Source: Escherichia phage Turkey5
Sequence record: PQ471516.1
DNA length: 64,000 bases
Direction: 5' to 3' (one strand)
Shown here: one piece after another, positions 33,074 through 33,538 of the stretch
How the letters are laid out: every line of letters begins with the position of its first letter
Numbering within the stretch: position 1 is the stretch's first letter
Notes under the pieces: model-generated
Told to the model about the DNA's origin: nothing
The model's database searches: none
Seen by the model: only the letters and a program-made list of their open reading frames with translations
Program-made: the position numbers and the translations under genes

Positions 33074-33538
33074 TTAATAACGATAAGGTAAACTGTTGAC
33101 AAACTGCTTACCTTGATTTATACTTTCCCACAATGAAAGGAAATCTTTCATCAAATTAGTGTTAAGTAAAGTGTTTTTAGCTCCTGGGTGAAGCGGCTTA
33201 GGCCACGAACCAATTTTTACCCATGCATAACCTGAACTCTCATGGTTTAGTATTGGAACAAATTCATTTTCAACAACAACAACAAAAGAATAATATCTGA
33301 ACTTACCATTCTTAGTACAAAATACGTCGAATGGAATAATATCAATAATATCAGGTATAGAATCACCCAACTCTTCTTTCATTTCACGATGTAAACCTTG
33401 AATCGGAGTTTCCTTATGTTCAAGCTTCCCACCAACAAACGCCCAGTTATTTGAATATGTACTTCTTTCAGATCGTAGATTCAACATCATATGACCAGTG
33501 CTTTTCGATAAAAATATAGCACCTACTGCTTCATTCAT
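33074..33538 (-). CDS. NUDIX hydrolase
   Basis: Perfect Nudix box GGKLEHKETPIQGLHREMKEELG (G-x5-E-x7-REUxEExGU); AAGGAGG RBS. Confidence 0.8.
   Translation of the reverse strand: MNEAVGAIFLSKSTGHMMLNLRSERSTYSNNWAFVGGKLEHKETPIQGLHREMKEELGDSIPDIIDIIPFDVFCTKNGKFRYYSFVVVVENEFVPILNHESSGYAWVKIGSWPKPLHPGAKNTLLNTNLMKDFLSLWESINQGKQFVNSLPYRY

Follow-up and report, generated by a model that had tools for sequence, protein, structure and literature searches.

A conserved Nudix hydrolase gene as the last cistron of a putative late tail operon in Escherichia phage Turkey5

The Nudix gene and its operon

The window analyzed here is a stretch of 64,000 nucleotides of Escherichia phage Turkey5 (PQ471516.1); it shares 99.6% identity with Escherichia phage vB_EcoM_JNE01 (Asteriusvirus). 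The open reading frame at 33074..33538 is a real, conserved Nudix hydrolase gene, which follows two structural genes on the same strand and faces a third, convergent one across a hairpin. The features of the locus are, in the order of their coordinates:

31940..33040, plus strand: convergent virion structural gene, 366 aa (phrog_14394, E 4e-216), which stops at the same terminator
33044..33070, both strands: bidirectional intrinsic terminator hairpin, 11-bp stem and 5-nt loop, flanked by an A-run and a T-run
33074..33538, minus strand: Nudix hydrolase CDS, ATG start, 154 aa, single domain, last cistron of the operon
33182..33265, minus strand: clade-specific C-terminal signature, residues E92-G119 (from alignment A1 and 152 distant domains)
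33362..33430, minus strand: Nudix box, residues G37-D59 (GKLEHKETPIQGLHREMKEELGD)
33544..33550, minus strand: ribosome-binding site GGAGGTG, read from the sequence, in the 12-nt gap between the stop codon of the gp15-like gene (33551..33553) and the Nudix ATG
33551..34894, minus strand: T4 gp15-like tail sheath stabiliser/completion protein, 447 aa, middle cistron (PF16724, E 1.3e-22; phrog_11196, E 1e-212)
34891..36381, minus strand: virion structural protein, 496 aa, first cistron (phrog_11591, E 1.6e-250)
36414..36419, minus strand: TAAATA, a T4-late-promoter-like core of putative function, 38 nt upstream of the first ATG of the operon

The 154-aa protein is recognized by the Pfam NUDIX profile PF00293 (E 5.6e-15; 56 bits against a gathering threshold of 21.1; residues 4-122) and, as a full-length match over residues 1-153, by the phrog_1198 'MutT/NUDIX hydrolase' HMM (E 2.9e-42). 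It has the alpha/beta/alpha fold of the Nudix superfamily, and the AF2 model reaches a pLDDT of 91.8. A comparison with phAPEC6 revealed a dN/dS of 0.037, which indicates strong purifying selection, and the dN of the gene is below that of both structural neighbours.

The Nudix box, G37-KLEHK-E43-TPIQGLH-R51-E52-M-K-E55-E56-L-G58-D59, is unique among the six reading frames of the window. Of the 23 positions of GX5EX7REUXEEXGU it agrees with 22; as the last U is Asp, the box is intact and nearly perfect, but not perfect as an earlier note on this DNA had described it. G37, E43, R51, E52, E55, E56 and G58 are invariant across 34 homologues, and among 152 distant domains, taken from representatives clustered at 50% identity, the same residues are at least 90% conserved apart from G58 (82%). 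With the catalytic Glu residues intact and invariant, Mg2+/Mn2+-dependent hydrolysis of a nucleoside diphosphate-X bond is predicted. The second hallmark is the C-terminal signature E-F-x-P-x-L-N-x-E-x5-W-x6-P-x-P-L-H-x-G, which is invariant or nearly so in alignment A1 and in the 152 domains, fused forms included. The window protein carries the full set of clade residues (R22, W32, F80, Y82, E92-F-x-P-x-L-N-x-E100, W106, P113-x-P-L-H117-x-G119), all of them invariant in alignment A1 or at least 82% conserved in the distant domains. It deviates from the clade at a single position, H16, which is Arg in 120 of the 152 domains.

Within the operon the first cistron and the gp15-like gene overlap by 4 nt. 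The start of the first cistron at 36381 is that of the JNE01 annotation, and the phrog_11591 match begins at residue 43 of the longer ORF. A short gap with an AGGAG-type site before the Nudix gene is also present in phAPEC6, CBB, GAP32 and RaK2; in the Rak2-like phages 9-13 nt separate the two genes and include a ribosome-binding site, and in PA5oct the genes overlap by about 120 nt. The Nudix CDS of PA5oct is annotated in an N-terminally truncated form. A frameshift fusion of the gp15-like and Nudix genes in that phage was considered and rejected, as in-frame ATGs are present within the overlapping ORF of 182 aa itself.

The TAAATA core is kept in the otherwise diverged intergenic region of phAPEC6, CBB, GAP32, RaK2 and PA5oct, and its spacing is like that of other structural operon leaders within the window. 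The longer ATAAATA is under-represented in the window (11 observed versus 22.8 expected), yet it is found upstream of several structural genes, and the exact T4 late promoter TATAAATA occurs in two copies, none of them near the Nudix operon. We retained the TAAATA core alone as promoter candidate, because it is conserved in six phages including this one. This is in line with the description of an ATAAATA late motif together with a T4 gp55-like late sigma factor for CBB and GAP32 (PMC5259590). A sigma-70 scan for an internal promoter before the Nudix gene returned 29 sites versus 25.3 expected and thus gives no evidence for one. An Rfam search of 30000..38000 had no matches. Taken from motif and gene order, late expression of the Nudix gene is plausible, given the 12-nt gap to the gp15-like gene, the conserved TAAATA and the gp55-like sigma factor in relatives.

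Convergent genes flank the hairpin (dG -17.1 kcal/mol; z -6.7; 200 shuffles gave no equally stable fold), and both strands carry a U-tract, so that it is a terminator common to the Nudix operon and the plus-strand operon. Equivalent hairpins with a different stem sequence are present in phAPEC6 and RaK2; in CBB and GAP32 the hairpin is missing, and the Nudix and convergent genes are only 1-3 nt apart. Several points of the earlier note can be judged by these data. The Nudix hydrolase assignment holds, with catalytic residues invariant across relatives, and so do the structural flanks (the gp15-like and virion structural genes on the same strand, the virion structural gene at 31940..33040 facing them); the supposed late expression is plausible. 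Of the statement that the gene has its own terminator, the hairpin is real, but it is bidirectional, shared with the convergent gene and not kept in all relatives.

Orthologues, virion proteomes and fused relatives

More than 80 jumbo-phage records contain orthologues labelled "MutT/NUDIX hydrolase", among them PBECO4, 121Q (gp578), phAPEC6 (gp249), RaK2 (ORF066), GAP32 (GAP32_226), CBB (CBB_232) and PA5oct (EST35_0161); the orthologue of JNE01 is 100% identical and labelled 'hypothetical protein'. Protein identity is 91-92% within Asteriusvirus (91% for phAPEC6 gp249), 72-75% to RaK2, GAP32, CBB, BF and Munch, and 54% to PA5oct. The order structural protein, gp15-like protein, Nudix is syntenic in phAPEC6, RaK2, CBB, GAP32 and PA5oct, and the Rak2-like orthologues are the same gene in the same place after the gp15-like gene, with no material difference. 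The Nudix gene belongs to the core gene set of Rak2-like and PA5oct jumbo myoviruses.

Packaging of the enzyme had been considered possible in the earlier interpretation and would have been the surprising part of it, but the virion proteomes available for relatives contradict it. ESI-MS/MS identified 62 virion proteins in phAPEC6, 55 in CBB and 93 in PA5oct; the Nudix protein (gp249, CBB_232 and EST35_0161) was not detected among them, in a method that easily misses small low-copy proteins and, for PA5oct, with a search database that may have contained only the truncated CDS. The products of the flanking genes were found, namely the gp15-like orthologues (phAPEC6 gp248, CBB_233, PA5oct gp162), the first-cistron orthologue CBB_234 and the convergent-gene orthologues phAPEC6 gp250c (40% coverage) and CBB_231. 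In RaK2, virion MS failed to find even the gp15-like gp067. The absence from three virion proteomes argues against packaging. The hallmarks of packaged or polyvalent effectors, a fusion to MuF, portal or lysozyme/SLT domains or presence in the virion, are likewise missing from this protein, with the proteomes of relatives standing in for its own.

Late expression of such an enzyme had also been called unusual. T4 nudE, however, likewise has late genes as neighbours (e, ipII and ipIII), and it has been described as common that Nudix genes of phages are located in clusters for late functions or morphogenesis (Iyer et al., 2022; PMC9503650). A role of morphogenesis-linked phage Nudix enzymes in countering NAD-derived defence was proposed in the same study. 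As relatives annotate the gene and their virion proteomes lack its product, we regard the finding as ordinary: the observation is confirmed and its first interpretation is partly supported.

At E <= 1e-10 the homologues number 2369. Among the best 150 distant representatives of the clade, 63 are multidomain proteins, with fusions to ADP-ribosyltransferases (seven), Phage_lysozyme (five), Hydrolase_2 (two), ParB_N (two) and GH19 (one). At one locus (L017) the module is part of a 3059-aa SLT-InPase-Nudix-ART-PolyVal polyvalent protein, whose gene adjoins a tail-fibre gene. At another (L010) clade members adjoin an RNA ligase, a CCA-adding enzyme and a KptA-like 2'-phosphotransferase. In RSL1 they adjoin NadM and PncB, and in RSL1 and BcepSauron they lie in non-structural neighbourhoods near deaminase genes ('deoxycytidylate deaminase domain like' in RSL1). 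The best Nudix-family match of the fused metagenomic forms is phrog_1198; the portal PHROG phrog_15528, which contains a Nudix segment, matches the query weakly. The Nudix modules of polyvalent proteins in phages and other mobile elements (Iyer et al., 2017, PMC5512222; Iyer et al., 2022, PMC9503650) belong to the same clade by profile (115-200 bits, full length) and share its signature, but they are fused, whereas the Nudix protein studied here stands alone. In a tblastn search of cultured phages, the Nudix-lysozyme fusion P0133 was matched by its Nudix part alone and never as a full-length fusion, which suggests that such architectures are metagenomic only. Hundreds of polyvalent proteins from metagenomes contain this catalytic module, so that many of them would be annotated by a single assay.

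Family placement and clues to the substrate

The NCBIfam equivalogs (MutT, NudI, NudG, RppH, NudB and YtkD) all score far below their cut-offs, so that no functional assignment follows from NCBIfam. The MutT 8-oxo-dGTP diphosphatase models (NF008044/TIGR00586) reach 35.8 bits versus 148 and 34.2 versus 97.9, with only residues 4-61 aligned; the nucleoside triphosphatase NudI (NF012016) reaches 31 bits versus 95, the NudG type 30.4 versus 156 and RppH (NF001936/7) 26.4 versus 118 and 22.8 versus 139. In the PDB, the profile matches best to MutT proteins (45.9 and 44.5 bits), followed by NudI (42 bits). By structure, NudI comes closest; the plant NUDX1, crystallized with geranyl pyrophosphate or geraniol, is among the structural neighbours as well, and NudC is a generic fold match only (13-14% identity). 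Bdellovibrio BdRppH (3ees) and the Nudix domain of yeast Dcp2 share 18-21% identity with this protein; the Dcp2 matches span query residues 25-137 and thereby most of the Nudix domain, the BdRppH matches are partial. The nearest solved relatives are thus NudI, MutT, BdRppH and Dcp2, all below family cut-offs. They also differ in known features: the regulatory domain and Box B of Dcp2 are absent here, and enterobacterial NudI (YfaO)/MutT-type enzymes lack the E92-F-x-P-x-L-N-x-E ... W106 ... P-x-P-L-H117-x-G signature.

NudC-type NADH pyrophosphatases are said to have been distinguished by Dunn et al. in 1999 through SQPWPFPxS about 10 residues past the box, with a zinc-binding N-terminal domain listed alongside. 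The motif is not present in this single-domain protein, as read from its sequence (residues 60-85, SIPDIIDIIPFDVFCTKNGKFRYYSF). For the NudF/ADPRase type the same authors reportedly gave a conserved Pro about 15-16 residues past the box, with an N-terminal dimerisation domain listed alongside; here positions +15/+16 are C74/T75, the prolines are at +3/+10 (P62, P69) and there is no N-terminal domain. By sequence and fold the protein is nearer to Nudix enzymes of the NTP or RNA-end type (NudI, MutT, BdRppH, Dcp2) than to ADP-ribose or NADH pyrophosphatases. Furthermore, Rak2-like phages reportedly have another Nudix protein, a Nudix-cREC fusion encoded in a gene cluster for ADPr processing (PMC9503650), so that an ADPr role of this Nudix protein could be redundant.

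The only characterized phage analogue in a similar position is T4 NudE.1, which is not essential. Its known substrates are ADP-ribose, Ap3A, FAD and NAD as well as NAD-RNA, which it decaps, and when it is inactivated lysis sets in about 15 min later (bioRxiv 10.1101/2024.04.04.588121). T4 NudE is, like the protein studied here, a small (151 aa) stand-alone phage Nudix. Orthology was rejected: both share 24% identity over 103 aa (BLASTP E 6e-4) and belong to separate PHROGs, the T4 family phrog_1185 matching this protein with E 7.2e-4 (20 bits) and T4 NudE itself with 4.7e-74. The clade HMM gives T4 NudE 17.7 bits versus 46 for a MutT, the C-terminal signature is absent from T4 NudE, and T4-type NudE occupies rank 49 among the viral structure matches of this protein.

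Proposed role and rival explanations

We tentatively assume a catalytically competent, soluble, non-virion Nudix pyrophosphohydrolase that would be made late in infection and act on linkages of the adenine-dinucleotide type. Transcription would start at the T4-late-type TAAATA promoter and end at the bidirectional hairpin, so that the enzyme would be synthesized late, as the last cistron of a tail-completion operon. By homology, the metal site formed by Glu52, Glu55 and Glu56 of the Nudix helix would cut the pyrophosphate bond of a nucleotide derivative. The substrates may resemble those of T4 NudE.1 (NAD(H), ADP-ribose or ApnA, free or as 5' caps or ends on RNA); this choice of class, drawn by analogy, is a guess and no better than possible. 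The enzyme would then remodel late nucleotide and RNA-end pools and would not be injected. A leaning toward RNA ends or NAD is suggested by the similarity to Dcp2 and BdRppH, by the neighbours at L010 and in RSL1, and by the ADP-ribosyltransferase fusions in seven of the 63 multidomain representatives. Candidate roles include RNA-cap or NAD/ADPr turnover, dNTP hygiene and counter-defence, and an anti-defence or capped-RNA role is a reasonable hypothesis. A substrate, if found, would reveal the late-infection role of a core, strongly conserved enzyme of the largest enterobacterial myoviruses.

It seems rather unlikely that the protein is a MutT/NudI-like (d)NTP pyrophosphohydrolase, which would convert damaged, non-canonical or unwanted NTPs to NMP and PPi and so condition the pool for phage DNA and RNA synthesis. 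MutT and NudI do lead the PDB profile matches, the box is set in a MutT-like 'R22 ... W-x-F-x-G-G-K-x-E' context, the InPase (inorganic pyrophosphatase-like) domain beside the L017 module would fit a PPi-releasing reaction, and the deaminase genes of RSL1 and BcepSauron are close to clade members. However, the equivalog scores all stay far under their cut-offs, the MutT alignments reach only the N-terminal two-thirds, the clade's C-terminal signature is not found in MutT, and the end of a late tail operon would be an odd time for replication support. To our knowledge, no characterized viral Nudix is a MutT-type sanitiser, which we also count against this explanation. Delivery with the virion appears improbable. 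Here a low-copy effector would be made late, carried in tail or head, and injected with the DNA, so as to degrade NAD-derived immune signals or nucleotides as soon as the next infection begins, a hypothesis already in print (Iyer et al., 2022; PMC9503650). The position of the operon beside tail genes, the clade fusions to cell-wall hydrolases of entry, ADP-ribosyltransferases and ParB_N, the tail-fibre gene next to L017 and the weakly matching portal phrog_15528 are consistent with it, but three independent virion proteomes of relatives lack the protein, which is a bare catalytic domain of 154 aa with no docking or targeting segment, and the more distant clade members of RSL1 and BcepSauron are found in non-structural neighbourhoods.

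The proposed late adenine-dinucleotide-type hydrolase also has to be weighed against a lysis-supporting enzyme, which would hydrolyse an NDP-sugar or prenyl-pyrophosphate wall precursor (UDP-GlcNAc, UDP-MurNAc-peptide, undecaprenyl- or farnesyl-PP) late in infection and weaken peptidoglycan synthesis. We consider this far-fetched, although peptidoglycan hydrolase domains with three distinct folds recur as fusion partners in the clade, NudI and NUDX1 are structural neighbours, late timing would be consistent, and the T4 NudE.1 gene adjoins lysozyme e and delays lysis when inactivated. The argument is purely associative: virion-delivery architecture accounts more simply for the lysozyme and SLT fusions, no lysis gene adjoins the Nudix gene in the window, and T4 NudE belongs to a different family. 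Just as remote is the broader notion that the clade enzyme may hit an envelope precursor as a late auxiliary lysis or entry factor alongside peptidoglycan hydrolases, rather than serve as a nucleotide-pool enzyme; it would also account for the delayed lysis in T4. Finally, it is hardly credible that the protein is kept for its structure, to help assemble or chaperone the gp15-like tail completion protein, and not for catalysis. The tight adjacency of both genes is kept from Asteriusvirus to PA5oct, at 54% protein identity and with overlapping genes in the latter, but the metal-binding and catalytic residues are all invariant under the low dN/dS given above, and clade members are also encoded outside tail gene neighbourhoods or form one module of a multi-enzyme protein.

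The Nudix gene and its surroundings

Structural genes flank the Nudix gene on both sides, which bears out its earlier description as embedded among late structural genes. Listed below are the features of the region and five of the TAAATA/ATAAATA sites of the window:

14076..14082 (-), TAAATA/ATAAATA site
30733..30739 (-), TAAATA/ATAAATA site
30768..30774 (+), TAAATA/ATAAATA site
30807..33040 (+), three structural genes convergent with the Nudix gene
33044..33070, hairpin between the two convergent stop codons (-17.1 kcal/mol, z -6.7)
33074..33538 (-), Nudix hydrolase, 154-aa ORF
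33551..34894 (-), T4 gp15-like tail sheath stabiliser/completion protein, upstream of the Nudix gene (PF16724, E 1.3e-22)
34891..36381 (-), virion structural protein, upstream of the gp15-like gene
36414..36419 (-), TAAATA/ATAAATA site
36493..38778, ClpA/B-like double-AAA+ protein, 761 aa, divergent from the tail operon
48860..48866 (-), TAAATA/ATAAATA site

A tail protein and a depolymerase spike of the colanic-acid type are encoded past the convergent genes, and on the side of the AAA+ gene there is a virion protein of 3336 aa as annotated (3346-aa ORF). Over 30000..38000 the sequence shares 99.6% identity with Escherichia phage vB_EcoM_JNE01 (355.6 kb, Asteriusvirus) and about 80% with PBECO4, 121Q, phAPEC6 and other Rak2-like jumbo coliphages. 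The JNE01 annotation coordinates correspond to those of the window in the 29-49 kb region examined. All genes in OR670491 111585..132998 (window 27410..48823) are labelled 'hypothetical protein' in JNE01, including the Nudix, gp15-like and ClpA/B-like ATPase genes, despite clear domain matches and names in related records. The pectate-lyase-like tailspike of Turkey5 is a single unbroken 715-aa ORF at 27411..29558 (-) (phrog_6117, 'colanic acid degradation', E 1e-253), whereas the 99.6% identical JNE01 has two overlapping CDSs (27410..29176 and 29127..29552), a discrepancy that points either to an indel or frameshift between the two sequences or to an artefact of annotation.

The Nudix protein matches Pfam NUDIX with an E-value of 5.6e-15 (56 bits, cut-off 21.1) and phrog_1198, 'MutT/NUDIX hydrolase', with 2.9e-42. 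Its Nudix box, GKLEHKETPIQGLHREMKEELGD, had been called perfect and is nearly so, as the consensus is met except at the final position, where Asp takes the place of a hydrophobic residue; no second box was found in the six frames of the 64 kb. An AlphaFold2 model with 34 homologues as input has the Nudix fold (pLDDT 91.8, pTM 0.86), and the catalytic/metal-binding residues E43, R51, E52, E55 and E56 as well as both glycines are invariant in these homologues. Compared with phAPEC6 the gene has a dN/dS of 0.037, and its dN of 0.059 is lower than that of the convergent structural gene (0.083) and the gp15-like gene (0.138). Using tblastn we recovered 102 phage records, including all Rak2-like genera and PA5oct-like phages, with weaker matches in RSL1, BcepSauron/Saruman, BCSR5 and Motura. 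No Rfam family was found in 30000..38000 and no ORF of at least 40 aa on the opposite strand within the Nudix gene.

Transcription and a shared terminator

The gap of 12 nt between the gp15-like stop and the Nudix ATG contains GGAGGTG, the first two operon genes overlap by 4 nt, and the order structural protein, gp15-like protein, Nudix is kept in phAPEC6, RaK2, CBB, GAP32 and PA5oct, whose Nudix protein is 54% identical to that of Turkey5. A TAAATA hexamer 24-38 nt upstream of the first ATG of the operon is retained within an otherwise diverged region in all six phages compared, and at similar spacing it also precedes the leaders of other structural operons in the window. ATAAATA is rarer than expected in the window (11 copies versus 22.8), and its copies cluster 33-42 nt 5' of structural operon leaders, two of them lying back to back between the divergent genes at 30695..30806. 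This distribution fits a T4-type late promoter, presumably read by a gp55-like sigma factor. The CBB paper (PMC5259590) reports such a factor and describes ATAAATA as putative late promoter, likened to T4's TATAAATA. In a promoter scan sigma-70-like sites were not more frequent than by chance, so an internal promoter for the Nudix gene is without support. Taking operon spacing, gene order, TAAATA and the missing internal promoter signal together, late co-transcription with the tail operon is therefore the best inference.

A perfect sigma-70 consensus (TTGACA-16-TATAAT, 12/12, extended -10 TG) is located at 36425..36452 (+) ahead of the ClpA/ClpB-like gene. This gene resembles one for a chaperone or unfoldase that host RNAP would transcribe from within the structural module. 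An antisense sigma-70-like site (33096..33124 (+), 11/12, TTGACA-17-TATACT) inside the 3'-terminal part of the Nudix gene is aimed into the Nudix and gp15-like genes; phAPEC6 and RaK2 have it too, whereas CBB does not. As the site overlaps conserved C-terminal codons (QFVNSLP), coding constraint may explain it.

The terminator was previously assigned to the Nudix gene as its own. The stable hairpin has a U-tract when folded on either strand and is shared with the convergent gene, which makes it a bidirectional terminator common to both. A hairpin with a different stem sequence occupies the equivalent place in phAPEC6 and RaK2; in CBB and GAP32 merely 1-3 nt separate the two genes.

Virion content and probable activity

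The earlier note also considered packaging, which is unsupported. ESI-MS/MS of phAPEC6 virions detected gp244, gp245, gp248, gp250c, gp251c and gp253, but not the Nudix protein gp249 (PMC7247149), the CBB virion proteins include CBB_230, 231, 233, 234 and 236 without the Nudix protein CBB_232 (PMC5259590), and 'ESI-MS/MS' flags in the PA5oct record are found on 0159, 0162, 0163, 0165 and 0166, not on the Nudix CDS 0161. In all three proteomes, which are independent of one another, products of flanking genes were detected and the Nudix protein was not; this speaks against its being abundant in the virion. The data would be compatible with a low copy number per particle. MS of RaK2 missed even the gp15-like protein, and the PA5oct CDS is annotated truncated. 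EST35_0161 is annotated with 105 aa, its start being a Met that belongs to the Nudix box (WGG|MLENNE), while the homologous frame (MK797984 93958..94506; 5872..6420 of the extracted locus) extends over 182 aa, beginning with the ATG at locus position 5872 (another ATG lies near 5929), and overlaps the gp15-like 3' end by ~120 nt. Judged from this frame, the N-terminus is almost certainly missing from the deposited CDS, and this may have limited its detection by MS. What holds of the earlier interpretation is a probably active, likely late-expressed Nudix hydrolase.

Orthologues have carried the label 'MutT/NUDIX hydrolase' since the RaK2 (JQ513383) and GAP32 (JN882285) records, and novelty is low. 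Iyer et al. (2022; PMC9503650) put the share of jumbo phages with Nudix domains at 45%, noted such genes frequently in late/morphogenesis clusters or fused to head proteins, and proposed packaging of the proteins and a function against NAD/ADPr-derived signals. T4 NudE.1 hydrolyses NAD and decaps NAD-RNA in vitro, and lysis of its catalytic mutant is ~15 min late (bioRxiv 10.1101/2024.04.04.588121). The anti-defence or capped-RNA role suggested earlier therefore restates an existing hypothesis.

T4 NudE belongs to phrog_1185, whereas the Turkey5 protein belongs to phrog_1198, and reciprocal family matches are weak. The HMM of the Rak2-type clade (phrog_1198) scores T4 NudE with 17.7 bits, versus 46 and 44.5 for MutT homologues, 42 for NudI, 39.3 for BdRppH and 38.6 for the Dcp2 Nudix domain. 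The nearest viral structure models are jumbo-phage relatives, T4-type NudE ranking 49th, and all NCBIfam equivalogs are far under cut-off. Direct reading of the protein found neither the NudC motif nor the ADPRase proline, which mark those Nudix classes. It is thus a minimal Nudix hydrolase of MutT-like type, belonging to a clade of its own. Its substrate is fixed by neither sequence nor fold. With T4 NudE.1 as functional model, from a different family, we tentatively favor a soluble, late-made pyrophosphohydrolase that would cleave adenine-dinucleotide or RNA-cap linkages; the main rival, a MutT/NudI-like NTPase, is less likely. During infection by PA5oct, which encodes an orthologue, the host pncA-pncB1-nadE operon (PA4918-4920) is most strongly up-regulated, a response tied to an ADP-ribose-dependent regulator of NAD metabolism (PMC7318152) that may reflect ADP-ribose build-up or NAD stress.

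The wider clade

An exhaustive search with the clade profile, run against 1.84 billion representatives, gave 19,068 matches (E <= 1e-3), 89 of them at E <= 1e-30. Genes near the RSL1 member include NadM, PncB, topoisomerase IB and a dCMP-deaminase-like gene, and the BcepSauron member is located among non-structural genes; a place in the tail operon thus characterises the Rak2/PA5oct lineage rather than the whole clade.

Among the best 150 representatives, 63 are at least 230 aa long. Partner domains in long representatives include ADP-ribosyltransferases (6 ART-PolyVal, 1 exoenzyme type), cell-wall hydrolases (5 Phage_lysozyme, 2 Hydrolase_2, 1 GH19), ParB_N (2), GNAT, HTH domains and DnaJ; most partner regions have no Pfam match. 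A 3059-aa polyvalent protein with a Nudix module of the same clade (IMGVR_UViG_3300016657_000030, 3132..12311; SLT transglycosylase-InPase-Nudix-ART-PolyVal-DUF7178) adjoins a Peptidase_S74 tail-fibre gene, and its combination of InPase with Nudix may point to a Nudix reaction that releases PPi. On IMGVR_UViG_3300031772_002836 a 449-aa Nudix-lysozyme fusion of the clade (7121..8470) is followed, up to 12918, by an RNA ligase-like gene, a 732-aa CCA-adding tRNA nucleotidyltransferase and a KptA/Tpt1-like RNA 2'-phosphotransferase, which together make up an NAD-dependent RNA-repair neighbourhood.

The 152 domains of the best 150 representatives share a sharp signature outside the box: R22, W32, P69, F80, Y82, E92-F-x-P-x-L-N-x-E100, W106 and P113-x-P-L-H117-x-G119. 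Residue 16 (33491..33493) is Arg (T14-G-R16) in 120 of these domains and in most Rak2-like homologues; it is His in Asteriusvirus proteins, the sole departure of the Turkey5 protein from the clade signature.
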